A stretch of DNA of 64,000 nucleotides from an uncultured Polyangiaceae bacterium (GCA_964517335.1 CAZFES010000001.1:7127-71126), one strand, 5' to 3'; positions 4,477 to 46,890 are shown, counted from the stretch's first letter. Notes: generated from the letters alone by a model not told the origin. Numbers and translations: made by a program.

Positions 4477-6446
<1,970 letters not shown>

Positions 6447-6474
<28 letters not shown>

Positions 6475-8137: not shown

Positions 8138-8541
8138 GCCTCGCCTCGCTCGCGGGTGATGTCGCCCGCGCGTCCGCGCGCCTCGGCCGCCTCGAAGTAG
8201 ATCTCGACGGCGTAGCCATCGGGATCGCGGCAGCTGAACGTGTAGTAGTCGCCGTAGTCCTCGGGACCATGGGTGATCGGCGCGTCGGCCTTGCGCACCG
8301 CCTCGAGCCAGGCGTCGACCTCGTCGCGCGACGCCACGCGGAAGCCGAAGTGAAAGCGCCGGTGGATCAACGGCTTGCCCTTCACCAGCGCGAGATCGGC
8401 GTCGCCGCAGGACAGGAACACGAAGTCGCCTTCCCGCCACGATCGCTCCATCCCGAACAGGCTCTCGTAGAACCCCGCCGAGCGCTCGACGTCGCTCACC
8501 ACCAGGCTGAGGTGATTCAGCGTCCGCATCTTCATGGTCAT
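8134..8541 (-). CDS. VOC / glyoxalase-bleomycin resistance-dioxygenase family protein
   Basis: Sequence MTMKMRTLNHLSLVVSDVERSAGFYESLFGM...HFGFRV...DPDGYAVEIY is a typical VOC beta-alpha-beta-beta-beta module. Start could be 8541, 8535 or 8529. The stop overlaps the protease start (GTGA). Confidence 0.75.
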   Translation of the reverse strand: MTMKMRTLNHLSLVVSDVERSAGFYESLFGMERSWREGDFVFLSCGDADLALVKGKPLIHRRFHFGFRVASRDEVDAWLEAVRKADAPITHGPEDYGDYYTFSCRDPDGYAVEIYFEAAEARGRAGDITRERGEA

Positions 8542-11325: not shown

Positions 11326-12369
11326 ATGGGGTTCGCAGGCTTCGGTAAGACCGAGATCCGCTACGACATGTTCGACATCGTCGCGAATGCCGCTGAGGCC
11401 AAACGCTTGGCGAAGTGCGAGCGCATCTATCACCGCGGACAGCAGATGGCCTGGGATGGCAAGGACGTCCTCGCGATGCTGCTCGCCGAGCACGGCGGGA
11501 TCCGCATCGCCGAGGAAAAGAAAGAAGCGCTGAAGCGCGTCTTCGCCATCATCATGTGGGGCGAGCTCGCCGCCTGGAAGATCTCGGCCCAGCTGGCCGA
11601 CGAGCTGGTGCCACTCGAAGCGAAGATGGCCGCCACCAGCCAGGCGTTCGACGAGGCGCGGCACTTCTACGTGATGCACGACTACCTGACCGAGCTCGGC
11701 TACCACCCCGAGCGAATGGATCGCGCACCGCAGGCGCTGCTCGACCTGGTGCTCGACACCGACAACATGGCCTACAAGATCCTCGGCATGCAGCTCATGA
11801 TCGAGACCATCGCGCTCACGTTGTTCCAGACGGTGCGCGAGCTCGAGATCGAGCCTGTGCTGACCGAGTTGATGAAGTACTACGAGCGCGACGAGGCGCG
11901 TCATGTCGGCCTCGGCATGCAGTACCTCCCGAGCCTGATGATGCGCATGAACAAGCGCGAGGTCAGCGCGCTCATCACCTATCAGGTCCGATTGTTGGTG
12001 TGGGCGCTGTGGGAGATGAAGGTGCTCGAGAAGGACTTCGCCATCCTGGGGATCGACCAGCGCGAGATCCTCGAACGCGGCCGCAAGAAGCAGCTGGCCG
12101 CGCTGCACGAGGCGTTCGGCGCGCTCGGCGTGGAGTGGCAAGAGGACCGCAACTACGCCGCCTCGACCCTCAAAGCCATCACCGAGTTCATGTTCCCCAC
12201 CGACGACACCAGGGGCAGCCGCTTCAAGCAGTTCAACGCCGCCTGGGACGCCTTCTGGAACAAAGAAGAGATCCACACCGACGCCGAGTTCGACGTCCAC
12301 CGCGGCCACCAGATCAAGACCGCCATGTTCGGCTGGATCGGCGGCGAGCAGCGCGACGCCGCCGAGTGA
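11326..12369 (+). CDS. Ferritin-like di-iron carboxylate protein (putative oxygenase/desaturase-like)
   Basis: GAGGAGG lies 5 nt upstream of the ATG. Two E...ExxH pairs are present: WGELAAW...FDEARHF and MIETIAL...ERDEARHVG. The gene starts 19 nt after the TetR stop. Confidence 0.7.
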   Translation: MGFAGFGKTEIRYDMFDIVANAAEAKRLAKCERIYHRGQQMAWDGKDVLAMLLAEHGGIRIAEEKKEALKRVFAIIMWGELAAWKISAQLADELVPLEAKMAATSQAFDEARHFYVMHDYLTELGYHPERMDRAPQALLDLVLDTDNMAYKILGMQLMIETIALTLFQTVRELEIEPVLTELMKYYERDEARHVGLGMQYLPSLMMRMNKREVSALITYQVRLLVWALWEMKVLEKDFAILGIDQREILERGRKKQLAALHEAFGALGVEWQEDRNYAASTLKAITEFMFPTDDTRGSRFKQFNAAWDAFWNKEEIHTDAEFDVHRGHQIKTAMFGWIGGEQRDAAE

Positions 12370-12373
12370 ACGG

Positions 12374-12838
12374 TCACTGCGAGGTGTCGAACGTACGCAC
12401 CGCCGCGTCCACGTCGGCGGCGTGTGCCGTCATCAGCTCCTTGGTGCCGCCCGCTTCGAGCAAGAAGATGCGCGCATCGGTCACGAACAGCGTGACATAG
12501 TACAGGTGCGGCTTGCCCGACTCCTCGTCGTGGCCGAAGCGCAGCTGCGTGCCGGCGACGCCGTCGGCGCTCTTCACCTTGACCGTCTCGAGCAGCGCGT
12601 AGCCCCCGCGATCGCGCATGCGGTTCTGGATCGCCTTGAGCCAGAAGCTCTCTTCGCCCTTGGGATCGTGGTCGATGGCCCGCAGCCCGATGACGAGCCC
12701 GTCGGCGGTCGTGGCCCGGTAGTCGTAGTCGTCCCAGTCGTTCTCGATCTCGACGAAGCCCGACGGCGTGTCGATCTGGTATCGCCCGCAGCCGGAGGCC
12801 GCGCACAGCACCGCGCAAAACAACAGTACTCGCTTCAT
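12374..12838 (-). CDS. Lipoprotein, unknown function (last gene of the vWA operon)
   Basis: MKRVLLFCAVLCAASGCG carries a lipobox. The start is 7 nt downstream of the DUF4349 stop, with GAGG overlapping that stop. Confidence 0.7.
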   Translation of the reverse strand: MKRVLLFCAVLCAASGCGRYQIDTPSGFVEIENDWDDYDYRATTADGLVIGLRAIDHDPKGEESFWLKAIQNRMRDRGGYALLETVKVKSADGVAGTQLRFGHDEESGKPHLYYVTLFVTDARIFLLEAGGTKELMTAHAADVDAAVRTFDTSQ

Positions 12839-12845
12839 CGTCGCC

Positions 12846-13676
12846 TCACAGGTTCATCAGGTTGGTCAGACCGAGGTTCTCCAGCCAGGAGAACGGCAGG
12901 CGCACGTTCGAGTCGACCTTGTCAGTCGCCTTGGGCTCGAGCGTCACCGTGATGGTGGAATACGCGATCAGCTCTCGCATCAGCTTCAACTTGCCTTCGA
13001 GGCTCTCGATCTCCTGGGTCACGCGCGCCATCTCTTGCTCGACGGCCAGCGCCTCTTTCACGTCCTTCGCCTCGACGAGCAGCGCCTCGAGCCGGTCGCG
13101 CAGCGCGCGGGCGTTCTTGAGCCGAACCTGCAGGTCGTAGAAGCGTTCGGTGACGTCCTCCACCGTCTCTTCGCGATGCAGCACGTCGCCGAGCTTGGTG
13201 ATGGCGCCGAGGGCGTCGCGGAAGCTGCCCGAGGGCACGCGCACCGTGATGTCGCGATCGCCGCGTCGCACCAGGTAGCCGTTGCGCTCCTCGGCGAGCT
13301 TCTGGACCGCGTCGATCACCTGCGTCGCTTCGAACACCGCCAGGTTGTAGTGCGCGGTGTAGATGAGCAGCGGATGGGCCCGCGCCTGCGCGCCCTCACC
13401 GCTCGTGCCGGTCACGTCGGGCCGCGCCGGGGGCGCCGGAGGCGGCGCGGGTGGCTCGGCGACCTCGGCGGCCGCGACATCGCCCGCCTGGGCATAGCGC
13501 GCCGGGGGCGCCCCGGGCGCCATCTCGGACTGCATGTCGTAGTCGCTCGGATCTTCGGTGGGTGTCGCCCCCGCGTCCATGGCGGCTTGCGGCGCAAAGC
13601 CACCACATCCGAACAGCGCCAGCACACCCAAGAGCTGCAGGCAGAGCCACCAGCGCGTCACCCCTGATGTCTTCAT
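12846..13676 (-). CDS. DUF4349-like lipoprotein (Pro-rich linker plus coiled-coil C-terminal domain)
   Basis: MKTSGVTRWWLCLQLLGVLALFGCGG carries a lipobox. The C-terminal region (LIYTAHYNLAVFEATQVIDAVQKLAEERNGYL...RLKNARALRDRLEALL...ITVTLEP) matches the DUF4349 pattern as I remember it. Confidence 0.65.
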   Translation of the reverse strand: MKTSGVTRWWLCLQLLGVLALFGCGGFAPQAAMDAGATPTEDPSDYDMQSEMAPGAPPARYAQAGDVAAAEVAEPPAPPPAPPARPDVTGTSGEGAQARAHPLLIYTAHYNLAVFEATQVIDAVQKLAEERNGYLVRRGDRDITVRVPSGSFRDALGAITKLGDVLHREETVEDVTERFYDLQVRLKNARALRDRLEALLVEAKDVKEALAVEQEMARVTQEIESLEGKLKLMRELIAYSTITVTLEPKATDKVDSNVRLPFSWLENLGLTNLMNL

Positions 13677-13705
13677 GTCGTGGCAACGCCTACCACGCGC
13701 CGAGC

Positions 13706-16700
13706 TTACAGGGGAAGCCGCGTCGATTGCGCCGGCAGCTCGGTTTGCTGCACGGTCACGGCGAAGCGCTTGCCGTCCCAGGTGATGTCGTGGCGATCCA
13801 GGCGCAACGGCTCCTTGCGCGGCACCGACCTGAGGCGCGCCACGAGCGCCGCCCGGTCGCGCTCCGCGCGCGACAGCAGCGTGGCCGCGAGGCCCACGGC
13901 GGCGGCGTCGGTCGGCTCGCCGAGCGCCGTTTCGGCATCGTCGACCGTCGTGGTCAGCGCCACGTCGCTCGTCAGATCCGGCCAGGTCAGGATGACCAGC
14001 GTGCCCTCACCCTGGAACAGCTGCAGCTCCTTGAGCTTGCGCTGCAGCGCTTCGGCGCTCGTGCCTTCGGGCGGTGACGCGAGCAGCCGCGCCACCCGCG
14101 CCGCCGACCACAGACGCGCCCAGCGCCGCGGATCGTCCGGCCCCGGACGGCCCTGCGCGCTGGCGACCTGTTTATCGATGCGCAGCGCCTCGTCCACGCG
14201 CCCTGCGCCCGCGGCGGCCGTGGCCATCCGCAACCAGGCGAGCGCGTCGCCCTGCGCCTCCGCGAGCGTCCGGAACTGGCGGTACGCCGGCTCGAACCAG
14301 CCCCGCGCCAGGTAGATGTCGCCGAGCAGCTGGCGCGAGCCGGCGCTGTGGGCATCGAACTCCACGATCTCGGAGTAGGTGCGCACCGCTTCTTCGTCCA
14401 ACCCCGCCCGCGCCAGCACGTCGCCGAGCTGCCGCACCACACGCACCGTCATCAAACCGCGGTCGCGCAGCCGTCGGCCCAGGGCGAGCGCTTCGTCGAG
14501 CCGGCTCGACGATGTCAGCATCTCCACCAGACGAATGATGCCGTTGGGGTCGTCGGGCGCGCGGGCCATGATCTCGCGCAGCGCGTCGATGCGCGCGTCG
14601 ATCTCCTCTATCTCGCTGAGCCGCCGATCGACGTCGCGCCAATCGATGCCCTTGCCGAAGAGCACTTCCTCCACGGCCGCCACCATGCGCTCGTCCACCA
14701 CGCGGCGCAGGATCAGCTTGGCGACGTACTGCTGGACGTCGCGACGCTGATCGAACACGCGCAACAACGCGCGGGCACCGGCCTCGCTGTCGATGTGACG
14801 CTGCAACAGGTCGAGCAGCGTCTGCTCGGCGCGCCAATCGTTGATCTCGCAGGCGCGTTGCGCGGCGGCGTAGCGCTCGATGAGCGCCTCGGCGCTCTCT
14901 GCCGTCGCGAGGCGCTTCTGCCAGATCAGCGCGCGCTGCGCCAGCGGGCGTCCCGCCACGGCGCTGCAGGTCCCCAGCGCGGCTTGGCTCCGCTCGCGAT
15001 CGCTGCCCTCGAGGAGCCCGGTCATGGACCAGGTGTTGGCGCGCGAGGGGTCGGCGCCCAAGCTGTCGTCCCTTCCCCAGCCGCCGCCCATGGGACCGCT
15101 GGCAGGGGGAATGTCCTCACCGGCCGCCGGCGTTTCGCTGCCGGCGCGATGGGGCGCGTCGATGGCGGGCTTGGCGTTGTCGTCGTACTCCTTGCTGTCG
15201 TAGTCGCCAGGCTCGGCGGGCGTCGCGCCGACCTCGTCCTCGGAGCAGCCGAGCGCGCTCGATGCCGGCGGCTCCGGCCCCACGGCCTTGCGCAAGCGCC
15301 ACTCGGAGTCGGCGTCGCGCGCGGTCAGCTTCACGCCGCGCAGCGGGCTCCGCCGCCGCGGGATCCCCATGTTGGCGTACGCCGCTTCGCTCTCGAGCGC
15401 CAAGATGCTGGTGAACGGCGTCATCAGGCCGTAGTCGATGCCCAGCGCGGTGATGCGCCCGCTGTCGGGCGACGCGCTCGGCGCGACGGTTCCATCGGGC
15501 GCGGCCTGCGTCACCGATGCGCCCAGCAGGCGCCGAACGTGCGCTGCCGCCCACAGCTTGGGCACGAAGGCGTTCAGCGCCGGCGCGCCCTTGCTGACCT
15601 CGAGCTCGCGCTCGATCACGGTGTCGCCCAGTCGCCCGCGCATGACGACCTTCTCGGGCAGGTCGTGGTGCGTGCGGGCCAGCACCACGACCTCGTCGCC
15701 GCGCACCAGCTTGCCGCTGACGTTGGACATCGGCTCGTCGAGACCCGCGCCGAGATCGATCTCGAGCTCGGTGAGCGTCGGCACCTTGAACGCGGCGGCC
15801 AGCTGCAACGCCGTGGCGGTGGCGAACGCCGCGTCGTGCAGCGCGTGGTTCTTTCCGCCTCCGGCGCGCGCCAGCTCCGACAGCAGCGACGTGTCGGCGT
15901 CGGGGCCCACCGCGACGGTGAACAGCCGCGCGCGAGAGCCGCCGATGGCGCGGCGCAAGCGCTCGATCAGCGCTTCACCGGTCTGCTCCCCGGAGGTCGC
16001 CACGCCGTCGCCCACGTACACCACCGCCGGCTGGGCCGCCTCGTGCACCAGGCCGAGCGCCACATCGAACAGCGCCGCCAGATCGGTGGCGCCGCCGGCT
16101 GCATGCCCCGACAGCGCGGCGAGGGCGCGCGCGATGTGCTCGTCGTCGGCCGGCGCCAGGCCCTCCTTCGGGTGAAGCACCCGGGGCGCCACGTCGAGCG
16201 CCACCAGCGCGAAGCGATCCTCGGCGGACAACGCCCGCAGGATGGATTCGGCAACCGTGGCGGAGAGCCGCCGCGTCGTGTCGTCCGCGCCGGCGGACGT
16301 GTCCACCACCAGCACGACGTCGGCGCGCGGCTGCGCGACGGCGTCCCAGTCGACGTCGGGCACGTAGCGCGCCATCACGTAGTCGGCCGCGTCACCTCCG
16401 CTGTCGAAGCGCGACACCCGGACGCCGCGCGAGCGCTCGGGCAGCTTCGCCTCGAGCTGAAAGTCGACGCGAGGCGTGTACCCCGAGCGGCGCATGGTGA
16501 CGCGCGCGCCGCCGTCTTCGATGCGCGCCTCGGCAAGCGTGGCGATCTCCATGGTCTTGCCTTCGCTGCCGAGGTCGACGCTCAACGAGAACTCGCCGAT
16601 CCGCACCGCCGAGCGACTCGCCATCGGATAGATGTAGGTGAGCTCGCCCGAGCCGGTGGGCAACAGCTCGAGGTATCGCAGCACCACGCGCCGGGTCTGC

Positions 16701-17710
16701 GACGGCAGGATGGGATAGATCCTGGCGCGATAGGTCTGACTGTCGATCCACTCGAGGATCGCCGGCGCATGGCCGGCGCTCTTGGCGCCGGTGTACTTGG
16801 CGGCGGCATCGCGCCGCTCGACGAGCTCGCCCTCGACCAGCACACCGTTGGTCTCGACGGCGAAGCTGGTGACGATGGCGCCGGGCGGTACGGCAAACCA
16901 GTACCAACCCTCCACTGGCCGCGGCGCGGGGTTGAAGAACGTCTGATCGACCTCGGTCTCGGCCAGTCCGTCGCGGATCACCGCGCGCACCGACTGGCTG
17001 TTGAGCTGCAGGCGCTCGGCCGGCGTGCCGCCGGGGCTGGCGGCGTCGACCGCCAAGATCTCGCCGTTGCCCGAAGCCACGGCGGACGCGCTGGCGCCGA
17101 AGTCGGCCATGCCGCCGGTCCAGTCGTCCCAGAATGCCAGCGGCTCGACCTTCGGCACGCCGTCGGCGCCGATCTGCGCGAGCTCGCCGGCGTGGACCTC
17201 CACGCGCCCGGCGGTGCCCGTCACCACGGCCATGCCGCGCGCGACGTACACCGTCGTCGCGGCGTCGCTGCGCTTCAGGCTCAGTCCCGCATCCTCGGCG
17301 GTGACGCCGACCTCGCCGGCGCGATGCACCAGACCGCTCCGGCCGCCCGCCGGCGCATCCAGCCAGTACTCGCCGCGCTGCAAGCTCAACGTTCGAGCCC
17401 CGAGCGCGACCTCGGTGCCGCCCCGCAGAAACGCCGACGAGCCGTCGGGCAACCGCAGCAACGCGCGCGCGCCATCCGCGGCGGTCACCGTCGATCCGGC
17501 GCGCAGCGCCTGCGGTCCGTGAACGCGCTGGCTGTGCTCGCCCATCACCACCCGAACGTCGCCCGCCGCCAGCTCGATGCGCGCTTCGATGGCGCCGGCC
17601 TCGACGGGCGGCGGACGGCGCTTCAGCTCGTAGGCCACGATGACGCTCACCAGCGCCACTCCCAGCGCCACCAAGGCGAGCCCGGACACCCGACGTGTGC
17701 GGCGGCTCAT
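13706..17710 (-). CDS. Giant membrane-anchored FecR-like / VIT / vWA / TPR protein (paralogue 1, 1334 aa)
   Basis: Basic tail plus TM helix (MSRRTRRVSGLALVALGVALVSVIV). FecR-like segment (ARALLRLPDGSSAFLRGGTEV...TVYVARGMAVV). VIT-like segment (SVRAVIRDGLAETEVDQTFFNP..EGWYWFAVPPGAIVTSFAV). vWA segment (VVLVVDTSAGADD...GGATDL...VYVGDGVATSG). The C-terminal approx 350 aa are TPR-like helices plus an unassigned terminal domain. ATGA overlap with the upstream paralogue. Confidence 0.8.
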   Translation of the reverse strand: MSRRTRRVSGLALVALGVALVSVIVAYELKRRPPPVEAGAIEARIELAAGDVRVVMGEHSQRVHGPQALRAGSTVTAADGARALLRLPDGSSAFLRGGTEVALGARTLSLQRGEYWLDAPAGGRSGLVHRAGEVGVTAEDAGLSLKRSDAATTVYVARGMAVVTGTAGRVEVHAGELAQIGADGVPKVEPLAFWDDWTGGMADFGASASAVASGNGEILAVDAASPGGTPAERLQLNSQSVRAVIRDGLAETEVDQTFFNPAPRPVEGWYWFAVPPGAIVTSFAVETNGVLVEGELVERRDAAAKYTGAKSAGHAPAILEWIDSQTYRARIYPILPSQTRRVVLRYLELLPTGSGELTYIYPMASRSAVRIGEFSLSVDLGSEGKTMEIATLAEARIEDGGARVTMRRSGYTPRVDFQLEAKLPERSRGVRVSRFDSGGDAADYVMARYVPDVDWDAVAQPRADVVLVVDTSAGADDTTRRLSATVAESILRALSAEDRFALVALDVAPRVLHPKEGLAPADDEHIARALAALSGHAAGGATDLAALFDVALGLVHEAAQPAVVYVGDGVATSGEQTGEALIERLRRAIGGSRARLFTVAVGPDADTSLLSELARAGGGKNHALHDAAFATATALQLAAAFKVPTLTELEIDLGAGLDEPMSNVSGKLVRGDEVVVLARTHHDLPEKVVMRGRLGDTVIERELEVSKGAPALNAFVPKLWAAAHVRRLLGASVTQAAPDGTVAPSASPDSGRITALGIDYGLMTPFTSILALESEAAYANMGIPRRRSPLRGVKLTARDADSEWRLRKAVGPEPPASSALGCSEDEVGATPAEPGDYDSKEYDDNAKPAIDAPHRAGSETPAAGEDIPPASGPMGGGWGRDDSLGADPSRANTWSMTGLLEGSDRERSQAALGTCSAVAGRPLAQRALIWQKRLATAESAEALIERYAAAQRACEINDWRAEQTLLDLLQRHIDSEAGARALLRVFDQRRDVQQYVAKLILRRVVDERMVAAVEEVLFGKGIDWRDVDRRLSEIEEIDARIDALREIMARAPDDPNGIIRLVEMLTSSSRLDEALALGRRLRDRGLMTVRVVRQLGDVLARAGLDEEAVRTYSEIVEFDAHSAGSRQLLGDIYLARGWFEPAYRQFRTLAEAQGDALAWLRMATAAAGAGRVDEALRIDKQVASAQGRPGPDDPRRWARLWSAARVARLLASPPEGTSAEALQRKLKELQLFQGEGTLVILTWPDLTSDVALTTTVDDAETALGEPTDAAAVGLAATLLSRAERDRAALVARLRSVPRKEPLRLDRHDITWDGKRFAVTVQQTELPAQSTRLPL

Positions 17711-20700
17711 TGCAACACCACCCTGGTCTGGCCGGGCGACAGCTCGTGCTCGGACCGCGTCACCTCGAAGGCCTCGCCGCTCCAGGCGATGTCGTGACGC
17801 ACGAGCCGCAGGGGATCGGCGCGCTTGGGACTGCGCAGCCGCGCCACCAGCGTGACCTTGCCGGCCTCGGCAGGCGACAGCATCGCGGCACAGAGGCCGG
17901 CGGGCGCGGCGTCGATCTGCTCGCCCGCGGCGACGGCGCGCTCCTCGATCTCCGCGACCATCGCCACGTCACTGGACAGGTCGTTCCACGTCACCACCAC
18001 CAGCCGCGCCGCCCCCGTCGCGAACAGCCCCAGCTCCTTGAGCCGCCGTTCCAGACTGGCGCGCGCCGGCGCGCGCTCGCCTTCGGGCGGATCGAACAGC
18101 AGCTGCCCGATGCGCGCCGCCGACATCAGCCGCGCCCAGCGCCGCGGGTCCTTGGGACCGGGACGGCCCTCTGCGACCGCCACCCGGCGCTCGAGACGCA
18201 GGGCCTCGTCGATCCGTCCCGCGCCGGCCGCGGCGTTCGCCAGCCGCAGCCAGGCCAGCGCGTCACCGGACGTCTCCGCCGCCGTCTTGAACTGGCGGTA
18301 CGCGGGCTCGAACCAGCCGTGGGACAGGTAGATGTCGCCGAGCAACAGCCGCGACGCCAAGCTGTTCGCGTCGAACTCGACGATCTCGGAGTAAGTACGC
18401 ACCGCCTCTTGCTCGTGCCCGCCGCGCGCGAGCACGTCGCCGAGCTGTCGCGCAATGGAGACGGTCAACAGCCCGCGGTCGCGCAAGCGCCGGCCGAGCG
18501 CCAGCGCCTCGTCGCTCCGCCCCGCCCGCGCGAGCATCTCGACCAGGCGGATCTGTCCTTGCGGATCGTCCGGCGCGCGGGCCATCGCCTCGCGCAAGCG
18601 CGCGATGCGCGCGTCGACGTCCTCGATCTCGCTGAGCTCGATGTCGATCAGGTTCCAGTCGATGCTGCGTCCGAACAGCACGCCCTGGATCGCCGCGACG
18701 ACACGCTCGTCGACGGTTCGCCGCAGGATGAGACGCGCGACCCACTGCTGCACGTCGGGCCGCGCGGCGAAGTGTCCGAGGACGATGCGCGCGCCGGCTT
18801 CGCTGTCCACGTGCGCCTGCAGCAGCCGTAGCAGCTCGCGCTCGGCGGCCCAGTCGGACAGCTCGCACGACAACCGCGCGCTCTCGTAGCGCGCGACGAG
18901 CTCGTGGGGCGTCGTGGCGGTCCGCAGCCGCTGCGCCCACAGCGCGAGCCGCTGCGCCAGCGGACGTCGCGCCAAATCGCTGCAGGTGGCCACCGGCGGC
19001 AACGCCTTCTGCTCGGCCTTGCCGGCGTCCTGATCGTGCTCCTGCTCCTCGGCGCCTTCGAACGCATCCACGGGGCGCGGGTCATTCGCTGCGCCGGGCC
19101 GGCCGGTAGCGAGCCGGGTCGCGGCGGCGCGTTGCAGCGGCGCGGGCTTTTTCTGCTTGTCGAGCGCGCCGGGCGGCGCCGGCATGTCGCCGGCGGAGGG
19201 GTCGGCGGGCTTCGACGGCTCGGCCGCCACCGCCGGTGCCTCGGGCGCGGCCATGTTTCCCTCCTCGTCGCGAACCGGGGTCGCCTCGGCCACATCGCCG
19301 GGGACCGGTTCGGTTCGCTGTCGTTCCGGCGGCGGGGCCGGCGCCACGGCCGCCACCTCGTCCTGAGCCGGCGCCTCGCCGCGCGAGCACCCCCACGCGA
19401 CCTCGGTCAGGGGCGCATGCCGCATCGCCAGCTCATGCTCGGAACGGTCGTCGAGCGCGCCCAGGCGCACACCGCGCAGCGGCGAGTGGCGGCGCGGGAT
19501 CCCCATGCGCGAATAGGCCTCCTCGCTCTCGAGCGCGAGCACGCTGGTGTACGGGGTCACCAGCCCGTACTCGATGCCGAGCGCCACCACCCGCCCGCGC
19601 TCGGCGTCGGGGCCGGCGGCGCCGCCGAGCAAGCGTCGCACGTACGACGATGCCCACATGCGCGGCACGAACGCGCTGAGCACGCTGTCGTCGAGATGGA
19701 CCTCCACCTCGCGCTCGAAGGCCTCACCGCCGAGCCGGCCACGCACGACGGCCTTCTTCGGCAAGTCGTCGTGTGTCCGCGCCAGCACGACCACGTCCGA
19801 GCCGCGCGCCACCTTGCCGCTGACGTTGGACAGCGGCTCGTCGAGCCCCGCGCCCAGATCCAGCTCGAAGTCGGTGATGGTCGGCACCTTGACCGCGGCC
19901 ATCAGCTCCAGCGCTTGCGCGCTCGCGCGGCCGGGCGTGTACACGTGATGGCTGCTTCCGCCGCCGGCGCGCGCGAGCTCGTCGAGCAACAGCTGGTCGC
20001 TGTTCGCCCCGACGCCTACCGTGAACAAACGCGCGCGCGAGGTGCTCAGCGCGCGCCGCATGCGCTCGATGAGTTGCTCGCCGGTGAGCTCGCCCGAGGT
20101 CGCCACGCCGTCGCCGACGTAGATGACCGCAGGCTGCGCCGCGCCGTGCAAGCGGCCGAGCGCTGCGTCGAACATCGCCGCGAGGTCGGTGGCGCCGCCG
20201 GCGCTGTGGTCGGACAGCGCTTCGAGGGCCTCGGCGATCTCGGCGTCGCTCGCGCTGGCGAGCGCCTCCTTCGGGTGCAGCACGGTGGCGGCCACGTCGA
20301 GCGACACCAGCGCAAAGGCATCGTCCTCCGACAGCGCCCGCAGGATCGCTTCGGCCACGCCATGCTTGAGCTGACGGCTCGCCTCGTCGCTGTCGGCCGA
20401 GGTATCCACCACCACCACGACTTCGGCCTTGGGCGTGGCGGTGGCGGCCCAGTCCACGTCGGGCGTGTAGCGCGCCATCACGTAGTCGGCGGCATCGCCT
20501 CCGGTTCGAAAGCGCGCCACCGTCAGCGGCCGGCGCGGCTCCTTGAGCGTGGCCTCGAGCTGGAAGTCCACGCGCGGCGTGAATCCGGAGCGGCGCATGG
20601 TCACGTAGCGGCCGCCTTCGATGCGCGCCTCGTCGAGCGTGGCGACATCCATCTTCTGCGCCGCGGCTTCGCCGAGATCGGCGCTCAACGAAAACTCGCC

Positions 20701-21813
20701 GATCCGGGCGCCGCTCTGCCCCATCGGATAGACGTAGCTGAGCTTGCCGTCGACCATCGGGCGGAGCTCGAGATAGCGCATGACCACCCGGCGCGTGCCG
20801 GCGGCGGGGACGGGATAGATGCGCGCCCGAAAGCTCTTGCCGTCGACCCACTCGAGGATGGCGGGCGCGTGTCCGCTGCTCTTGGCGACGCCGTACTGCT
20901 TGGCGGCTTCGCGTCGCTCGATGACCTCGCCCTCGACGAGCACGCCGTCGGTCTCCACGGCAAAGCCCGTCACGCTGGCGCCGTCGGGGACCGCGAACCA
21001 ATACCAACCCTCGACGTCGCGCGCGCCTGGATTGAAGAAGGTCTGGTCCACCTCGGTCTCGCTCAGGCCCTCGCGCAGCACCGCGCGCACGCTCTGCTGC
21101 TTGATCTGGAGCGGCTGCGCCGGCGTGCCGGGGGGCGCGCCCACGTCCACGCCGTAGATGGTGCCGGCGCCGGCACCCAGCGAGATGGCCGCGCCGTCCG
21201 CCATGCCGCCGGTCCAGTCGTCCCAGAAGGCCACCGCCGACACCTCGGCCTTGCCGTCGGCGATGCGGGCCTGCTCGCCGGCGTTCACCTCGACGCGGCC
21301 GGCGTCGGTCGACACCACCGCCATGCCGCGCGCGACGTAGACGGTGGCGCCGCCGTCGGTGATCGCGATGGAGAGCCCGGCCTCGGCGGCGGTGACGCGC
21401 GCGGGCCCGGCGCGGTGCACGAGGCCCTTTCGCTCGAGGACGGGCGCGTCGAGCCAGTACTCGCCGCGCTCGACGACGACCTCGTCCTCGCCGACCACGA
21501 GCTTGCTGCCGCCTCGCAGGAACGCGCCCGACCCGTCGGGCAGCCGCACCAGCGCGCGGGCTCCCGCGTCCGTCTCGATGGCCGCACCGGCGCGCAGCGC
21601 CGTGCCGCTCGTCGCCTGTTCTTGCTGTCCCTGCTGCGTCACGACCACGCCGCCGGCGGCGAGCTCGAGACGCGCGGCGATGGCGCGGCTCTCCACCGGC
21701 GGCGGCTTGCGCCACAGCGCCGTGACCACGATGGCGCCGATCAGCGCGACCGCCGCCACCACCAACATCGCCTGGGGCCAACGACCCCCCAATCCCCGTC
21801 TTGCCACGCTCAC
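17707..21813 (-). CDS. Giant membrane-anchored FecR-like / VIT / vWA / TPR protein (paralogue 2, 1368 aa)
   Basis: Collinear with 13706..17710 over its whole length, with the same domain order and many identical blocks (e.g. FWDDWTGGMAD, HAPAILEW, GGDAADYVMARY, GWFEPAYRQF). GTG start at 21813; alternatives are 21807 and 21768. Confidence 0.8.
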   Translation of the reverse strand: MSVARRGLGGRWPQAMLVVAAVALIGAIVVTALWRKPPPVESRAIAARLELAAGGVVVTQQGQQEQATSGTALRAGAAIETDAGARALVRLPDGSGAFLRGGSKLVVGEDEVVVERGEYWLDAPVLERKGLVHRAGPARVTAAEAGLSIAITDGGATVYVARGMAVVSTDAGRVEVNAGEQARIADGKAEVSAVAFWDDWTGGMADGAAISLGAGAGTIYGVDVGAPPGTPAQPLQIKQQSVRAVLREGLSETEVDQTFFNPGARDVEGWYWFAVPDGASVTGFAVETDGVLVEGEVIERREAAKQYGVAKSSGHAPAILEWVDGKSFRARIYPVPAAGTRRVVMRYLELRPMVDGKLSYVYPMGQSGARIGEFSLSADLGEAAAQKMDVATLDEARIEGGRYVTMRRSGFTPRVDFQLEATLKEPRRPLTVARFRTGGDAADYVMARYTPDVDWAATATPKAEVVVVVDTSADSDEASRQLKHGVAEAILRALSEDDAFALVSLDVAATVLHPKEALASASDAEIAEALEALSDHSAGGATDLAAMFDAALGRLHGAAQPAVIYVGDGVATSGELTGEQLIERMRRALSTSRARLFTVGVGANSDQLLLDELARAGGGSSHHVYTPGRASAQALELMAAVKVPTITDFELDLGAGLDEPLSNVSGKVARGSDVVVLARTHDDLPKKAVVRGRLGGEAFEREVEVHLDDSVLSAFVPRMWASSYVRRLLGGAAGPDAERGRVVALGIEYGLVTPYTSVLALESEEAYSRMGIPRRHSPLRGVRLGALDDRSEHELAMRHAPLTEVAWGCSRGEAPAQDEVAAVAPAPPPERQRTEPVPGDVAEATPVRDEEGNMAAPEAPAVAAEPSKPADPSAGDMPAPPGALDKQKKPAPLQRAAATRLATGRPGAANDPRPVDAFEGAEEQEHDQDAGKAEQKALPPVATCSDLARRPLAQRLALWAQRLRTATTPHELVARYESARLSCELSDWAAERELLRLLQAHVDSEAGARIVLGHFAARPDVQQWVARLILRRTVDERVVAAIQGVLFGRSIDWNLIDIELSEIEDVDARIARLREAMARAPDDPQGQIRLVEMLARAGRSDEALALGRRLRDRGLLTVSIARQLGDVLARGGHEQEAVRTYSEIVEFDANSLASRLLLGDIYLSHGWFEPAYRQFKTAAETSGDALAWLRLANAAAGAGRIDEALRLERRVAVAEGRPGPKDPRRWARLMSAARIGQLLFDPPEGERAPARASLERRLKELGLFATGAARLVVVTWNDLSSDVAMVAEIEERAVAAGEQIDAAPAGLCAAMLSPAEAGKVTLVARLRSPKRADPLRLVRHDIAWSGEAFEVTRSEHELSPGQTRVVLQ

Positions 21814-21957
21814 ACCCTACTCCATCGTCAGAGCGCCGAAACCGGCGCAATCATCAGACGACCGGGCGCGCCTCGGGTTGTCACCGTTTCATCACGATTG
21901 TCGCCGATGCGGCCGCGCGACGATGACACGCGGGGTGGGGACCCACGCGCCGCGGGC

Positions 21958-23463
21958 TCAGAACGCGAGGTCTGCCGCCTCGCTCTCGTTGCGGCGGACC
22001 TGCGCGCGACCCTTGCGCGTAGCTTGCGGCGGAACGGTGGCGGGCTGCCCGGGCGCCGCAAAGGGCGCATCGGCGGGCGGCGGCTCGGCGAAGCCGGTCG
22101 ACGCGCCCTCGATGGCGGCGATCTGCCGGTCGAAATCATCCTCGAGCTCCGCCTGACGGAGCGGGGCCGCCTTCGGCGCGACGTCGCGGCGCTTGCTCAC
22201 CAGCTCGTCGCGGGCCTTGTCGAGCTTCGCGCGCGCGGCGCGCGCGTCACCGGACGAGAACAGCGAGTTGGCTTCGCGCAACGTCGCCGTGGTCCGGGCG
22301 CGGCTGAGACGTCCGACCACCAGCGGATCGAGCGGCGACACCTTGGTGGCGTCGTGGGTGAGCGTCGCATGCAGTTGCCCGCCGCAGCTGCCTTGGCTTC
22401 CGGTGACCAGATCGTCGAACGTCATGCGCACGTCGGCCACCGCGCGGCCGCCGTCGGAGCCCCGCGGCACGCGTACCTTCACGAGCAGCGTCTTCTGCTC
22501 GGCAGCGGTGAACGAGCCCATCGGCACGACGAGGCTCTGGCCCTCGCGGCGGAAGGAGCGGTCGAACACCTCGAGCAGCTCGACACCGGGGGCGAGATCC
22601 ACGCGCACGTTGGTGTTGGTCGCGACGGTGCGGACCAGCGACTGCAGCTCCTGCTCGAAGATCGTCGGCAGCCCGCCCGCGTTCTCCACGAAGTAGTGCC
22701 GGCCGTTCGAATCGAGTGCGATGGTCGACATGATGCGCTCGTTGTAGTCGACGTCGACGCCGATGGAGCTGATGGAGCAGCCCATGTCGCGCGCGCGCTC
22801 GGCGATGCGCCGGAAGCCGTCGAGATCGCGGACGCCGGCGGTGGCCTGGCCATCGCTCAGCACCAGCATGCGCTGGATCATGCCGTCGCGGCCGCGCAGC
22901 GCGTCCATGCCGGCTTCGATGCCGCAGGAGATGCAGGTGTCGCCGTTGGGCGTGATGGACTCGAGCTGGCGGGCGACCTCGTCGCGCGCGCTGGCCGAGA
23001 TCAGCGTCGGCGACACCAGCGTGTCGGCGCGCGTGTTGTACGCGATCACGCTGACCATGTCGCCGTCGCGCAGGCGGCTGACCATGCCGCGCGCGGCGTC
23101 GACGGCGTTGCGCAGGCGCTTGCCGCTCATCGAGCCCGAGCGATCGATGACGATGGCCAGGTTCACCGGCGCCGCCCGGGTGGCCGTCGCGTCCGCGGGC
23201 GCGTCGATGTCGAGGTACAGGTAGGTCTCGCTGTCCTGGCTGGCCGCGAGCGAGGCGTGACCGAGCCGGCCTTCGACCTTCAGCGTGGTGCCGTCGACGA
23301 ACTTCCAGGCGTCGAGGGCGACCTCGGGCGTGGTGATGTTGGCCTCGGTGGCCGCGGCTTCGAGGCGGTCGCGGAAGCCACCGGGCGGCGTCACCGACCA
23401 CACGGTCACGCTCGTGAGGGTCATCGCTGCCGCTGCGAGCCATCCGACGGTCTTGATTCTCAT
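21958..23463 (-). CDS. Secreted/anchored vWA domain protein with canonical MIDAS (BatA/BatB-like)
   Basis: AGGAG lies 9 nt upstream of ATG 23463. N-terminal hydrophobic segment. MIDAS residues: VIDRSGSMSG ... GDTCI ... LSDGQAT. The C-terminal tail is helical and low-complexity. Confidence 0.8.
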   Translation of the reverse strand: MRIKTVGWLAAAAMTLTSVTVWSVTPPGGFRDRLEAAATEANITTPEVALDAWKFVDGTTLKVEGRLGHASLAASQDSETYLYLDIDAPADATATRAAPVNLAIVIDRSGSMSGKRLRNAVDAARGMVSRLRDGDMVSVIAYNTRADTLVSPTLISASARDEVARQLESITPNGDTCISCGIEAGMDALRGRDGMIQRMLVLSDGQATAGVRDLDGFRRIAERARDMGCSISSIGVDVDYNERIMSTIALDSNGRHYFVENAGGLPTIFEQELQSLVRTVATNTNVRVDLAPGVELLEVFDRSFRREGQSLVVPMGSFTAAEQKTLLVKVRVPRGSDGGRAVADVRMTFDDLVTGSQGSCGGQLHATLTHDATKVSPLDPLVVGRLSRARTTATLREANSLFSSGDARAARAKLDKARDELVSKRRDVAPKAAPLRQAELEDDFDRQIAAIEGASTGFAEPPPADAPFAAPGQPATVPPQATRKGRAQVRRNESEAADLAF

Positions 23464-23683
23464 TACCCTGTCTCCTACCCAGCGCGGCCACCGAGGTGGC
23501 TCTTCATCAACGATTCCGGCGTATTTGCCCGCGGCCGAGGGCTGCGGGCGGGTGGTCCGAAGGAGACAACGCGCCGCCGCGCGTCATCTTTCACCCTGTG
23601 TGCACGCGTCTGGGACGACCGTGACCGCGAATCGATCTCCCGCCCCCCCGCGCCGGGCGGCGGAACCGTGCTCCGGCGGGCCG

Positions 23684-25060
23684 CTACGCGAGCGGCAGGG
23701 TGAGCGCCACGCACAGGCCACCCCCTTCGCGGCAGCGCGCTTCGATGGTGCCGTCGTGCGCCGCGACGATCCGCCGGCACAGCGCCAGGCCCAGGCCGAC
23801 GCCGCCGGTGCCGCGCTCGCGGCTCCGGTCGCTGCGGAAGAACGGCTCGAACAGCATCGGCAGATCGTCGGGATCGACGCCGATGCCGCGGTCGCTCACG
23901 CTCACCGCGACGCAACCGTCGTCGGCGCGGAGCGCGACCTCGAGCTCGATGGGGCCGCCGTCGGCATACTTGACGGCGTTGTCGAGCAGGTTGTCGAGCA
24001 CGCGCCGCACCAGCTTCGAATCCACGTCCACCGGCGGCAGATCGGGCTCTATCCGCACCACCAGGCGGTCGCCGTCGTGCAAGCGGACGAATCGCTGCTC
24101 GGCTTCGCCGACGATGTCCTCCATCGACGTCGGCGCGCGCTGCAACGGCAGCGTGCCGTCGGTGTTGGCCGTGAGGTCGAGACGCGCGGTGAGCAGCACT
24201 TGCTCGACGAGCTGTTCGAGCTCGGCGAGATCGCCGCCGATGCCTCGCAGGCGCTCGCGGGTGGCGCCGGGGTCGTCCTCGTCCTCCGCGAGCTCGAGCG
24301 CGATGCGAATGCGCGCCAGCGGCGTGCGCAGCTCGTGGGACACGTTGGCGAGCAGCTCCTTTTCGTTGTTGACCATGCGCTCGAGGCGCGCCGCCATCTC
24401 GTCGAAGGCGCGCGCGAGCACGCCGAGCTCGTCGCGCCGCATGGCATCGACGCCGCTGCGCGCCGCCAGATCGCCCTCGCCGAGCGCGCGGGCCGCGCGG
24501 GTGATCCGCTCGACCGGACGCGCGATGCCGCGCGCCATCGACAGCGACACCAGCGCGAGCACCAGCAGCACCACCGCCGGGATGATGAGCCAGGCCCAGG
24601 CGCTGCCCCACTGCCACTGGTAGGCGCCCACCACATAGGCGCGGCCGTTGTCGAGCGGCACCGCGAAGCGCTGGCGCCGGCCGTAGCCCCGCATGTACGC
24701 CTTCTCCGGGACCGCCTCGAGCGGCGCGACCTCTCCCCCGTAGTCGGCGAGGCGCTCGCCGGCGGCGTTGTAGACGGCCACGTCGACCTCGAAGATGGCC
24801 GCCAGGCGCTCGACCTTGGCGTCGAGGGCAGCCGGATCGTCGAGCAGCCCCGACAGCTCCTGATCGAGGTACCGCGCCAGCCGCTGGTGGATCATCGTGA
24901 CCGGCGCCGGCATGCCGCTCCACAGCAGCTTGTTGGCGATGCCGACGCCCGCAGCGACGGCCACCAGCAGGATGATGCCGTGCAGATAGACGCGCCAGAA
25001 CACGCGCCGGCCGTGACGGTGGCGACCGCGCCGCTCTCGGCAGCGACGGCCGCGATGCAT
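23684..25060 (-). CDS. Sensor histidine kinase (2 TM, HAMP, HisKA, HATPase_c)
   Basis: Start MHRGRRCRE (ATG 25060) shares 1 nt with the response-regulator stop (TGATG). H-box NVSHELRTPLARI. N, G1 and G2 boxes: DNLLDNAVKY, DRGIGV, GTGGVGLGLA. Confidence 0.85.
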   Translation of the reverse strand: MHRGRRCRERRGRHRHGRRVFWRVYLHGIILLVAVAAGVGIANKLLWSGMPAPVTMIHQRLARYLDQELSGLLDDPAALDAKVERLAAIFEVDVAVYNAAGERLADYGGEVAPLEAVPEKAYMRGYGRRQRFAVPLDNGRAYVVGAYQWQWGSAWAWLIIPAVVLLVLALVSLSMARGIARPVERITRAARALGEGDLAARSGVDAMRRDELGVLARAFDEMAARLERMVNNEKELLANVSHELRTPLARIRIALELAEDEDDPGATRERLRGIGGDLAELEQLVEQVLLTARLDLTANTDGTLPLQRAPTSMEDIVGEAEQRFVRLHDGDRLVVRIEPDLPPVDVDSKLVRRVLDNLLDNAVKYADGGPIELEVALRADDGCVAVSVSDRGIGVDPDDLPMLFEPFFRSDRSRERGTGGVGLGLALCRRIVAAHDGTIEARCREGGGLCVALTLPLA

Positions 25061-25764
25061 CAGCCGCCCTCCAGCGCGTACTGATAGCCCACCCCGCGCA
25101 CCGTCTTGATGCGCTTCGGTTTGCGCGAGTCGTCGCCCAGCTTCTGGCGCAGCCGCGAGATGTGCACGTCCACCGAGCGGTCGAACGCCTCTTCGGCGTT
25201 CCCGCGCGCCAGCTCCATCAGCTGCTCGCGGCTGAGCACCCGCCCGGCGCGCTCGACGAGCGCATACAACAACGAGAACTCGTAGCTCGTGAGCGCCAGC
25301 TCCTCGTCGCGCAGGATCGCCGTGCGCGCGCCCGGATCGAGCGTGAGATCGCCGACGGTGAGCGTCCGCACCGAGGGGCCCACCTGGCCGCGGGCACGCC
25401 GCACCAGCGCGCGCAGTCGCGCCAGCAGCTCGCGCGGCGAGAACGGCTTGGCGAGGTAGTCGTCGGCGCCGATCTCGAGGCCGAGCACGCGGTCGGCTTC
25501 CTCCCCGCGCGCGGTGATCATGATGATCGGCACGTCGGACTGGTCGCGCAGGCGCTGGCACAAACTGATGCCGTCGATGCCGGGGAGCATCACGTCGAGC
25601 AGCACGCAATCGAAGCGATGCCGTCGCGCCTCCGCCAGACCGTCGTCGCCCCGCGCCGCCACCGTCACGACGCAGCCGTGCCGCTCGAGGTACTCGCGGG
25701 TCAGCGACGCCAGGCGCGCGTCGTCTTCCACCAGCAAGACCTGAACCATCGGCTCGGCGGTCAT
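25060..25764 (-). CDS. OmpR/PhoB-family response regulator
   Basis: Receiver domain (VLLVEDD...LLDVMLPGIDG...ITARG...DDYLAKPF) followed by a winged helix (LTSYEFSLLYAL...IKTVRGVGYQY). Start is 25764 or 25749. Confidence 0.85.
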   Translation of the reverse strand: MTAEPMVQVLLVEDDARLASLTREYLERHGCVVTVAARGDDGLAEARRHRFDCVLLDVMLPGIDGISLCQRLRDQSDVPIIMITARGEEADRVLGLEIGADDYLAKPFSPRELLARLRALVRRARGQVGPSVRTLTVGDLTLDPGARTAILRDEELALTSYEFSLLYALVERAGRVLSREQLMELARGNAEEAFDRSVDVHISRLRQKLGDDSRKPKRIKTVRGVGYQYALEGG

Positions 25765-25883
25765 GCCCTGTAGTCTTCCATGCCGGAGGTCGTTCCGGGC
25801 GTCGATTCGTGGCCTCGATGAGGGCAGCGGCGGCATGCGCTCCCTACTCTGCGTCGCCGCCCTGGTGCGCGTGTGTCGCGATC

Positions 25884-25899
25884 GTGAAGTTCTGTGAAG
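25884..25899. promoter_or_regulatory. Direct repeat GTGAAG-ttct-GTGAAG (10-bp period), a possible OmpR-family binding site
   Basis: Two exact hexamers one helical turn apart, about 120-135 nt upstream of the response-regulator start, in the 136-bp gap after the citrate-synthase-like gene. This tandem geometry is typical for winged-helix regulators. No consensus is known for this regulator. Confidence 0.25.
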
Positions 25900-25900
25900 C

Positions 25901-27019
25901 CTACGCGGCCGGCCGCGCGCCGACGTAGCGCGCCGCGGGGCGGATCAGCCGCCCGGTGCGGCGCTGTTCGGCGATGTGGGCGCACCAACCGGCCACGCGC
26001 CCCACCGCAAAGGTGGCGGTGAACATGCTGCGCGGCACCCCGAGCGCTTCGAGCAGCACCGCCGTGTAGAACTCGACGTTGGCGCGAATGGGGCGATTCG
26101 GCTTGCGCGCCGCCAGCTGGCGTTCGGCCTCGCGCTCGACAGCGCGCGCCAGCGCCACGCGACCGCTCGCGGGATCGAGCGTGCGCACGGCCGCCTCGAG
26201 CAGCTCGGCGCGCGGATCCCGCGCGCGGTAGACGCGGTGGCCCATGCCCATGATGCGCTCGCCCGCCGCGAGCGCCTGCGCGATCCAACCCGCGGCCGCG
26301 CCGGGATTGCCGATGGCGTCGAGCATGTCGAGCACCGGCCCGGGCGCGCCGCCGTGCAGCCGGCCCTTCAGCGCGCCGATGCCCGCCACCACCGCCGACA
26401 CGGTGTCGGACTCGGTCGAGGCGACGACCCTGGCCGCGAAGGTCGACGCGTTCATGCCGTGCTCGCACACCGTCGCCAGATAGGTGTCCATGGCGCGCGC
26501 CTCGACGCGCCGCGGGATACTGCCGCGCAGCATGCGTAGGTAGTCGCTGGCATGGCTGCGCCGCGGGTGAGGCTCGAGCGGCGGCTGGCCCGCCGCGCGA
26601 CGCGCCCAGGCGGCCGCGAACACGGCCGTCGCGCCGGTCAGGCTGACGGCATCCCAGGGGACGTCGGCGATCCCTTCGCTGGCGCTGTCGAGCGCGACGT
26701 GCGCGAGCGCCGCGCGCAGCCCATCCATCGCGTCATCGGCGTCGAGGGCGCTGCCGAGCTCGCCCATGAGCGCCCAGGCGCGGCGGCGCGCCAGGCCCAG
26801 GGCGGCCGACACGCGCGCCACCCGGACCCGCCCTTCGGCGCCGGACGGCAGCACGCCGTCCCACAACAGACAGCAGGCGCTGTCGAAGCCGAGCGCCGCC
26901 ACCTGTTCCACCGGGTGGCCGCCGATAAGCAGGCGGCCGTGGACGCCATCCACTTCGCTGAGACGGGTGTCCGCCACCACGATGCCCTCGAGACCGCTGT
27001 TGCTCATGCGCTGCAACAT
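25901..27019 (-). CDS. Citrate synthase-family protein (short, about 372 aa, CitA-like)
   Basis: Motifs: GLEGIVVADTRLS, LKGRLHGGAPG (first catalytic His context), MGMGHRVYRARDPR (second His), RPIRANVEFYTAV (Glu where canonical enzymes have NVDFY), GRVAGWCAHIAEQ. Confidence 0.8.
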   Translation of the reverse strand: MLQRMSNSGLEGIVVADTRLSEVDGVHGRLLIGGHPVEQVAALGFDSACCLLWDGVLPSGAEGRVRVARVSAALGLARRRAWALMGELGSALDADDAMDGLRAALAHVALDSASEGIADVPWDAVSLTGATAVFAAAWARRAAGQPPLEPHPRRSHASDYLRMLRGSIPRRVEARAMDTYLATVCEHGMNASTFAARVVASTESDTVSAVVAGIGALKGRLHGGAPGPVLDMLDAIGNPGAAAGWIAQALAAGERIMGMGHRVYRARDPRAELLEAAVRTLDPASGRVALARAVEREAERQLAARKPNRPIRANVEFYTAVLLEALGVPRSMFTATFAVGRVAGWCAHIAEQRRTGRLIRPAARYVGARPAA

Positions 27020-27036
27020 GGGCCCGCCGTGCTATG

Positions 27037-27062
27037 TTGATCAACATTGATTCATGAATCAA
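27037..27062. promoter_or_regulatory. Palindromic operator candidate: TTGATCAA-ca-TTGATTCATGAATCAA
   Basis: A perfect 16-bp palindrome TTGATTCATGAATCAA (27047..27062) is centred on the ATG of the HTH-fused gene. It is preceded by the 8-bp palindrome TTGATCAA (27037..27044). Both lie in the 34-bp divergent intergenic region and are strongly AT-rich for this DNA. Confidence 0.55.

Positions 27063-42927: not shown

Positions 42928-46890
<3,963 letters not shown>

Follow-up and report, generated by a model that had tools for sequence, protein, structure and literature searches.

On one strand of a 64,000-nucleotide (nt) stretch of DNA from an uncultured Polyangiaceae bacterium (the window, by which we mean the whole stretch), five adjacent genes at positions 12374-23463 encode a vWA protein of 501 amino acids (aa) that we call vWA501, two giant proteins (giants A and B), a DUF4349 lipoprotein and a small lipoprotein. 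We find that this cluster consists of three independently distributed modules, namely vWA501, the giants and the lipoprotein pair, and is not one conserved five-part machine; all three are common in Polyangiaceae and related Myxococcota. The giants are members of the ITIH-type VIT-vWA superfamily with a new architecture. We give roughly an even chance to the reading that the cluster is a lineage-specific juxtaposition of three separable envelope modules in which the giants serve as periplasmic tethers.

The independence of the modules emerges from a comparison set of 80 genome loci (of 201), 80 metagenome loci and several exact-match contigs, with 1173 proteins called across the 160 related loci. 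Loci orthologous to the window were recognised by their flanks, a response regulator and histidine kinase upstream and AurF-like and TetR genes downstream. L089 has the window's order of vWA gene, two giants, DUF4349 gene, lipoprotein gene, AurF and TetR, and L095 has the same order with one giant. L036 runs from the response regulator and kinase through the vWA gene and one giant to AurF and TetR, with the lipoprotein pair absent, while L091 has kinase, vWA, DUF4349 and lipoprotein genes and no giant. In L151 the vWA gene stands next to AurF, again without a giant, and L103 preserves the kinase and vWA genes. This varied content between shared flanks indicates that giant copy number ranges from zero (L091, L151) through one (L036, L095) to two (the window, L089), and that the lipoprotein pair varies independently of this number. 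The original prediction regarded the five genes as a unit, and this unity is not kept in a survey of synteny across the loci compared.

The steadiest element of the window's lineage is the run of response regulator, kinase and vWA gene. The kinase and vWA genes are adjacent in the window, L036, L091 and L103, and the response regulator has an ortholog at the same position in L036 (76% identity). Giant A is orthologous to the lone giants encoded after a vWA gene in other genomes, sharing 69% and 68% identity with those of L030 and L090, and giant B, with 60% identity to giant A and an identical architecture, is its diverged tandem paralogue; the A/B split is common to the window and L089.

Beyond the orthologous loci, a vWA501 homolog lies directly upstream of a giant on the same strand in 25 of the 69 genome loci with enough flank, and the giant gene is often solitary, with no vWA501 gene. 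In every context examined (L028, L085-L089, L091, L095) the 154-aa lipoprotein gene has a DUF4349 gene as its nearest upstream neighbour. This pair occurs without a nearby vWA or giant gene in L085/86 and L087/88, and it falls within 10 kb of a giant in one of 80 genome loci. In L028, where both modules lie within 10 kb, they are parted by two unrelated genes, one of them on the opposite strand.

The giants form a large family. At E<=1e-10, 779 proteins were recovered among 8000 candidates scored, the best 120 of them nearly all full length, and giant genes were confirmed at 201 loci in species-representative genomes. Nearly all of the 80 giant loci examined are labelled Myxococcota, mostly Polyangia, and the carriers include cultured Sorangium and Polyangium (the latter with Polyangium fumosum), Byssovorax and a Nannocystaceae isolate. 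Strains with a single giant include Polyangium fumosum DSM 14668 (L081) and Sorangium So ce1014 (L071) and So ce1128 (L069). The C-terminal domain is matched by 98 clusters (50% identity) at E<=1e-30, and the TPR/beta-sandwich region was seen only at the C-terminus of proteins of 1270-1630 aa or in gene fragments. The combination was originally predicted to be uncharacterised, and this is borne out by literature searches on the architecture, DUF4349 and bacterial VIT-vWA proteins, which found no study of the giant family in the library searched; in automatic annotation it carries only generic domain names.

The architecture of the giants runs from a transmembrane anchor through a FecR-like beta domain, an ITIH-type VIT-vWA module, a spacer and a TPR superhelix to a C-terminal beta-sandwich (Table 1). 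Of the FecR, VIT, vWA and TPR domains attributed to them beforehand, VIT and vWA are strongly supported by Pfam in both giants, with VIT matches at 1.7e-23 and 1.7e-24 and VWA_3 matches at 7.5e-14 and 9.1e-11 (the latter in giant B). FecR (PF04773) reaches 13.6 and, in giant B, 21.1 bits where 24 are required, and no TPR model passes its Pfam cut-off in the window giants. The FecR and TPR assignments nevertheless find support in the family, where 17 of 20 relatives match each model (FecR at best 1.4e-9, TPR_19 at best 7e-10). In giant B the FecR-like domain is modelled by AlphaFold2 (AF2) with about 15 strands and a block-averaged predicted local distance difference test score (pLDDT) of about 74-94. 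A profile of this domain matched no solved structure among PDB sequences, and Foldseek matches of the whole N-terminal model are dominated by ITIH proteins, so that the FecR fold is a tentative assignment.

The central module ties the giants to a family best known from animals, in which ITIH heavy chains stabilise the extracellular matrix and ITIH4 inhibits proteases. To our knowledge, bacterial VIT-vWA proteins are almost unstudied. In a phmmer search residues 234-774 of giant B align with ITIH4 (9c4f_I) over about 540 residues at 2.7e-14. The AF2 model of residues 36-800, built from 70 aligned sequences (pLDDT 86.6), matches ITIH1 (6fpy) in Foldseek at 3.3e-31 over 591 columns, with a TM-score of 0.63 and about 16% identity. 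The VIT domain, beta domain, vWA domain and C-terminal wrap are contiguous, as they are in ITIH1-4 and in further VIT-vWA proteins of eukaryotes, PARP4 among them; both groups use no ATPase and are extracytoplasmic, the giants most likely so. The giants differ in being membrane-anchored, in carrying a FecR-like domain in front of this module and the spacer, TPR superhelix and beta-sandwich behind it, and in lacking both the second serine of the metal-ion-dependent adhesion site (MIDAS) and the DPHF processing and ester site, which is absent from all five proteins. Both giants have a degenerate MIDAS: its first motif is DTSAD in giant A, and giant B has DTSAG (from D470) together with T542 and D568.

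The unconserved spacer of giant B is bracketed by an invariant Gly-Cys (G821-C822) and by C915; in giant A the spacer occupies residues ~810-943. Among the 18 relatives in which both flanking motifs were found by pattern it is 91-178 aa long (median ~148). In the model of giant B's C-terminal fragment the opening 16 residues have low pLDDT. The Gly-Cys, whose cysteine is C809 in giant A, is kept in 20 of 20 aligned relatives; it marks the exact end of the ITIH-like module, with a hydrophobic residue before it and the disordered spacer after it. Together with C915 and C954 it brings the invariant cysteines to three, and it could be a disulfide, processing or cross-link site. The Gly-Cys loosely recalls a lipobox, and we considered whether it is a relic of one left by a gene fusion; no hydrophobic stretch lies ahead of it, and the C-terminal domain was seen only in long proteins or apparent fragments. 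The C-terminal half of giant B (residues 890-1334, 445 aa) is modelled by AF2 at a pLDDT of 93.7; Foldseek relates this model to consensus TPR and OGT TPR proteins at about 1e-5, and phmmer relates the TPR region to designed PPR/TPR proteins at values down to 5.8e-20.

Table 1. Coordinates, in the window, of the five genes, of sequence elements within them and of the neighbouring genes.
Feature	Window position	Residues	Strand	Description
vWA501 gene	21958-23463		minus	501 aa
vWA501 N-terminal segment	23380-23463			TSxTVWSLTP
vWA501 C-terminal tail	21958-22035			RxGKxQVRxN..A.[DE][LFM][AG][FL]
Giant A gene	17707-21813		minus	1368 aa, GTG start
Giant B gene	13706-17710		minus	1334 aa
Giant B signal-anchor	17618-17695	6-31	minus	sole hydrophobic segment; hydropathy scan, alignment
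Giant B FecR-like all-beta domain	17126-17599	38-195	minus	ends in invariant FWDDWTGG
Giant B ITIH-type module	15389-17011	234-774	minus	VIT, beta domain, vWA, C-terminal wrap
Giant B invariant Gly-Cys	15245-15250	821-822		at end of ITIH-like module
Giant B spacer	14969-15244	823-914	minus	Ala/Pro/Gly/Glu-rich, unconserved; alignment
Giant B TPR-like superhelix	14027-14962	917-1228	minus	18 helices, invariant YSEIVEFD motif; AF2
Giant B C-terminal beta-sandwich	13712-14005	1236-1333	minus	~100 aa; AF2, pLDDT >95
DUF4349 lipoprotein gene	12846-13676		minus	276 aa
Small lipoprotein gene	12374-12838		minus	154 aa
OmpR-family response regulator gene	25060-25836		minus	Response_reg 7.5e-32, Trans_reg_C 1.7e-27 (Pfam)
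Sensor histidine kinase gene	23684-25063		minus	HAMP/HisKA/HATPase (Pfam); two hydrophobic (transmembrane) segments
AurF-like di-iron protein gene	11326-12369		convergent	downstream of small lipoprotein gene (Pfam)

All five products are envelope proteins, most likely facing the periplasm, as judged from their sequences. Each giant has a single hydrophobic segment, revealed by a hydropathy scan and the alignment, which is N-terminal and follows 4-5 basic residues, consistent with the membrane anchoring originally predicted for both. It begins at residue 6 in giant B, between MSRRTRR and a conserved RxPPP, and at residue 11 in giant A, so that only about 5-10 unconserved residues precede it. 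The segment contains no signal-peptidase site and is conserved as a putative anchor, and the giants have no LPXTG or other C-terminal sorting signal. In a distant giant in L038 a lipoprotein signal replaces the N-terminal anchor segment. We place the giants in the periplasm because of the anchor after basic residues, the L038 lipoprotein signal, the invariant cysteines and the neighbouring lipoproteins.

vWA501 bears out the expectation that the first gene would encode a vWA protein with a canonical MIDAS: Pfam VWA matches at 1.2e-19 and the site is intact (DRSGS, GDT, SDG). Beyond the vWA domain the chain runs through a beta-sandwich, a helical hairpin and a Pro/Ala linker into a conserved C-terminal tail that has an invariant acidic position. 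The family alignment also shows a conserved GDTCISC motif and an unusually conserved N-terminal hydrophobic segment, by which vWA501 is predicted to be held in the inner membrane as a periplasmic protein. The nearest solved structure is ArnB (8s05, 3.9e-11). Like the ArnB-type proteins (8s05, 5a8j), vWA501 has a vWA domain and then a beta-sandwich. The two differ in that ArnB acts as a regulator in the archaeal cytoplasm, with an FHA protein as its partner, whereas vWA501 appears membrane-anchored and periplasmic and has the conserved tail. The conserved termini hint at self-association or auto-inhibition via the MIDAS. The tail was also considered as a docking peptide specific for giants, an idea weakened by its conservation in members with no neighbouring giant.

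The vWA501 gene is often found downstream of genes for a cyclic-nucleotide (cNMP)-binding/4Fe-4S membrane protein and a cytochrome-c/flavin adenine dinucleotide (FAD) oxidoreductase fusion (L005, L031, L034, L039, L041, L044, and many metagenome loci, including L146, L149, L156-L158, L163 and L164), and in genome loci a gene for a kinase-multihaem protein sometimes stands ahead of these redox genes. This gene order could reflect a functional link or mere inherited order.

The two lipoproteins predicted from the DNA are supported in both cases. The 276-aa protein matches DUF4349 (PF14257) at 4.4e-40, with 137.7 bits against a gathering score of 27.7, over model positions 3-163 of 213, leaving the C-terminal transmembrane part of the model uncovered; it has a lipobox (LFGC, Cys24), a coiled coil and no meaningful PDB match. 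The 154-aa protein has a lipobox (ASGC, Cys17) and no match in Pfam, NCBIfam or the PDB, and its homologs number at least 589, of which the 120 listed are 56-88% identical. Five members of its family (P0142, P0154, P0158, P0209, P0221) are labelled 'serine/threonine protein kinase' in NCBI records, a label that looks like a propagated mis-annotation because the proteins are 150 aa long and contain no kinase domain. In L085/L086 (329-8541) the lipoprotein pair adjoins a reverse transcriptase gene and two genes for large WGR-domain proteins, with a gene for a WGR-domain DNA ligase just past the WGR genes in L086; this context could represent a retroelement-linked system.

Several other accounts of the cluster deserve consideration. 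The original prediction was that all five proteins assemble from a single operon into one envelope-spanning sensing or adhesion machine. The shared strand, the 4-nt overlap, the 29-nt and 7-nt gaps and the envelope character of all products agree with this idea, as do the identical five-gene order in L089, the one-giant version in L095 and the proximity of both modules in L028. What stands of it is the envelope location. The conserved machine does not survive the distribution described above, in which the lipoprotein pair occurs without vWA or giant genes and near a giant only once in the genome loci, L036 lacks the pair, L091 lacks a giant, and the L028 modules are split, and we consider it improbable that the five proteins form one assembly. 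It is slightly harder still to credit FecR-type transmembrane signalling, in which the FecR-like domain would sense an outer-membrane or periplasmic cue and relay it to a sigma factor or the neighbouring kinase. The PF04773 matches across the family and the OmpR and kinase genes adjacent in four related loci speak for it, and the giants resemble FecR/PupR anti-sigma factors in having a PF04773-like beta domain just outside the inner membrane after a single transmembrane segment. They differ in lacking a cytoplasmic anti-sigma domain and an extracytoplasmic function (ECF) sigma factor or TonB-dependent transducer partner. The N-terminus is too short, and too little conserved, to hold an anti-sigma domain or any other output module in the cytoplasm, and the FecR-type domain first read as a sensor does not imply signalling. 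No ECF sigma factor or TonB-dependent transducer was found among the scanned window genes, no DUF58-, ECF sigma- or transducer-like family among the recurring neighbour families inspected, and no sigma factor recurs beside a giant in the 80 genome loci. Furthermore, the L038 giant is lipid-anchored and has no membrane-spanning helix, and the kinase gene adjoins the vWA gene and not the giant, remaining beside it in L091 and L103, which have no giant.

Adhesion is a classic role of vWA domains that carry a MIDAS, and the giants might be cell-surface adhesins exported past the outer membrane for attachment to prey or substrate. Their top NCBIfam match, and nearest curated bacterial model, is TIGR03788, a 'marine proteobacterial sortase target' surface protein with a bacterial VIT-vWA core (149.6 and 151.3 bits); exosortase- or sortase-sorted VIT-vWA proteins of TIGR04477 and TIGR02921 share this core. 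The scores lie far under the 551.65-bit cut-off, and the giants differ from TIGR03788 proteins in their N-terminal anchor, the missing sorting signal, the added FecR-like and TPR regions and a different taxonomic range. The scanned window genes include no secretion-system genes, and we judge surface adhesion to be about as doubtful as FecR-type signalling. PMC12204202 cites a gliding-motility protein of Myxococcus that has a vWA fold, which lends adhesion some support. The same paper describes membrane-tethered vWA 'force transducers' encoded beside tolQ/tolR-like motors and carrying an SHLS/His motif or an Asp in the transmembrane helix (PMC12204202). The giants share their layout of transmembrane helix, proline-rich segment and periplasmic vWA domain; they differ in having no His or Asp in their transmembrane segments and a vWA domain embedded in an ITIH-like module, and the scan of window genes turned up no tolQ/tolR/exbB-like motor genes. 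As ITIH4 and the alpha-2-macroglobulins of bacteria suggest by analogy, the giants might instead trap or inhibit proteases in the periplasm and shield the envelope of a bacterium that secretes many of them. The VIT-vWA homology to ITIH4 and ITIH1 would fit, as would tethering and a long exposed spacer that could act as bait, and trypsin-like protease genes occur in the wider neighbourhood (window 6938-8440; L085-L089). We think this quite improbable: the giants have no CxEQ thioester motif and no DPHF site, the spacer sequence is unconserved, and the protease genes are neither adjacent nor consistently present. The least credible account, which we very much doubt, is a Bat (Bacteroides aerotolerance)-like, MoxR-dependent vWA system with its ATPase and DUF58 genes at another site. 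A loose resemblance to BatA-E lies in the pairing of vWA with TPR and in the presence of both in membrane-associated proteins. It was correctly predicted that no MoxR, DUF58 or sigma factor gene lies nearby: a Pfam scan of 30 flanking window genes found none. The MoxR-type Walker A motif (G.PG.[GA]K[ST]) is absent from all six frames of the 64-kb window, and across the 160 related loci MoxR-type P-loop matches were limited to three FtsH genes and one MoxR-like gene in L038. The giants moreover fuse vWA and TPR with VIT and FecR-like domains, and their vWA domain is of a periplasmic ITIH type that would be out of reach for a cytoplasmic AAA+ chaperone. Since such vWA modules belong to a class without an ATPase partner, the Bat operon is the wrong yardstick, the absence of MoxR and DUF58 is to be expected, and the cluster is not anomalous for being 'MoxR-less'.

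The L038 MoxR-like ATPase (GVPGTAKS) is encoded about 6 kb upstream of the lipid-anchored giant (L038:3-6448), together with genes for a 988-aa and a 798-aa protein; the arrangement was seen at this one locus and belongs to a separate gene set, unrelated to the giant. Recurrent neighbours of giant genes were also considered as functional partners, namely RimK, AstE and DUF2179 upstream and rimP-nusA-infB and a 2-hydroxyacid dehydrogenase downstream, and we judged their presence to reflect inherited chromosomal position. At giant loci without vWA501, the next gene downstream on the same strand encodes a protein of 400-430 aa that has several N-terminal transmembrane helices and a long coiled coil (family F14 in L011, L013, L018, L048, L076 and L083; family F18 in L015, L074, L079 and L082), and these proteins may be an alternative partner of the giants.

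In the reading that we favour, of separable envelope modules with the giants as tethers, the giants would act as ATP-independent periplasmic tethers or scaffolds anchored in the inner membrane. The membrane-proximal FecR-like and ITIH-like head would provide one protein-binding site and the distal end, the TPR superhelix with its beta-sandwich, a second, with the two joined by a flexible spacer that may be long enough to cross the periplasm. Where it is co-encoded, vWA501 is a plausible binding partner through its MIDAS, its acidic C-terminal tail, or both, and the partner of the tail might instead be another protein, or vWA501 itself. The adjacent OmpR and kinase pair probably controls the vWA-led genes, in the window's lineage only, and the lipoprotein pair is most likely a neighbour and not a subunit.

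A number of observations weigh against parts of this proposal. The topology is drawn from charge and hydropathy only, and all interactions among the proteins are hypothetical. The second MIDAS serine is missing in 20 of 20 aligned giant-family members, with the Thr and Asp kept, so that metal-dependent ligand binding by the giants is uncertain. The gaps between vWA and giant genes, 23-371 nt (144 nt in the window), are long for an operon, and a giant lies downstream of a vWA501-family gene in only 7 of 55 metagenome loci, most having no adjacent giant. The tail and N-terminal segment of vWA501 are conserved with or without an adjacent giant gene, so the tail's partner need not be a giant. Adjacency of the two-component pair is confined to the lineage of the window. 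Finally, given the 29-nt and 7-nt gaps, co-transcription of the lipoprotein pair with giant B is possible, and the two may be functionally linked in this lineage.

The gene layout itself is as originally predicted. An open reading frame (ORF) listing reproduced the five packed same-strand genes, of which the first two are 144 nt apart, the two giants overlap by 4 nt (ATGA) and the remaining gaps measure 29 nt and 7 nt, and their G+C content at third codon positions (GC3) of 0.88-0.92, as in genuine genes of this ~70% GC window, indicates that the five ORFs are real. The GTG start of giant A has a GGAG motif 8 nt ahead of it, and the NCBI model for this protein (P0013) begins 15 codons later; giant B is identical to P0001. 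The predicted OmpR and kinase pair is found directly upstream on the same strand, with a gap of 220 nt between the kinase and vWA501 genes, and the TetR gene, like the AurF-like gene, lies downstream of the cluster in convergent orientation (Pfam). A scan of positions 12000-26200 for promoters and terminators found nothing beyond chance, and none of the five proteins matched PADLOC models, including those for vWA-containing conflict systems, at E<=0.001.

Elsewhere in the window, a divergent pair of citrate-synthase-family genes occupies 25901-28307, the member at 27054-28307 being fused to an N-terminal MerR/HTH_17 DNA-binding domain. At 42928-46908, next to a phosphodiesterase/sulfatase-like gene and a LysM-peptidase M15 gene, lies the gene for a 1326-aa protein with Cys-rich DUF4215 repeats, an amidohydrolase domain, a thrombospondin type 3 repeat and a lamin-tail domain. 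Pfam gave no match at E<=0.001 for two long ORFs of high GC3, one at 57839-61348 (1169 aa) and one at 4575-6474 (633 aa).

Our findings define a large, Myxococcota-restricted protein family with hundreds of members, a fixed and unusual architecture and confident models of both halves. They also show that the 'operon' is not to be read as a complex of five subunits and that its lack of MoxR is no anomaly. A bolder view, to which we attach some small likelihood, is that the giants, with or without vWA501, build a periplasm-spanning structure of Polyangia that needs no ATP and has so far gone unrecognised, a bacterial counterpart of matrix stabilisation by ITIH proteins. The ITIH-like head and the TPR/beta-sandwich end would then connect the inner membrane with partners at the peptidoglycan or in the outer membrane, giant copy number (0-2 per locus) might tune envelope properties, and the invariant Gly-Cys could mark a processing or cross-linking site. 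Should the giants prove to be tethers or scaffolds, they would represent a new envelope element of social bacteria with large genomes and would offer a bacterial model for ITIH-type modules.

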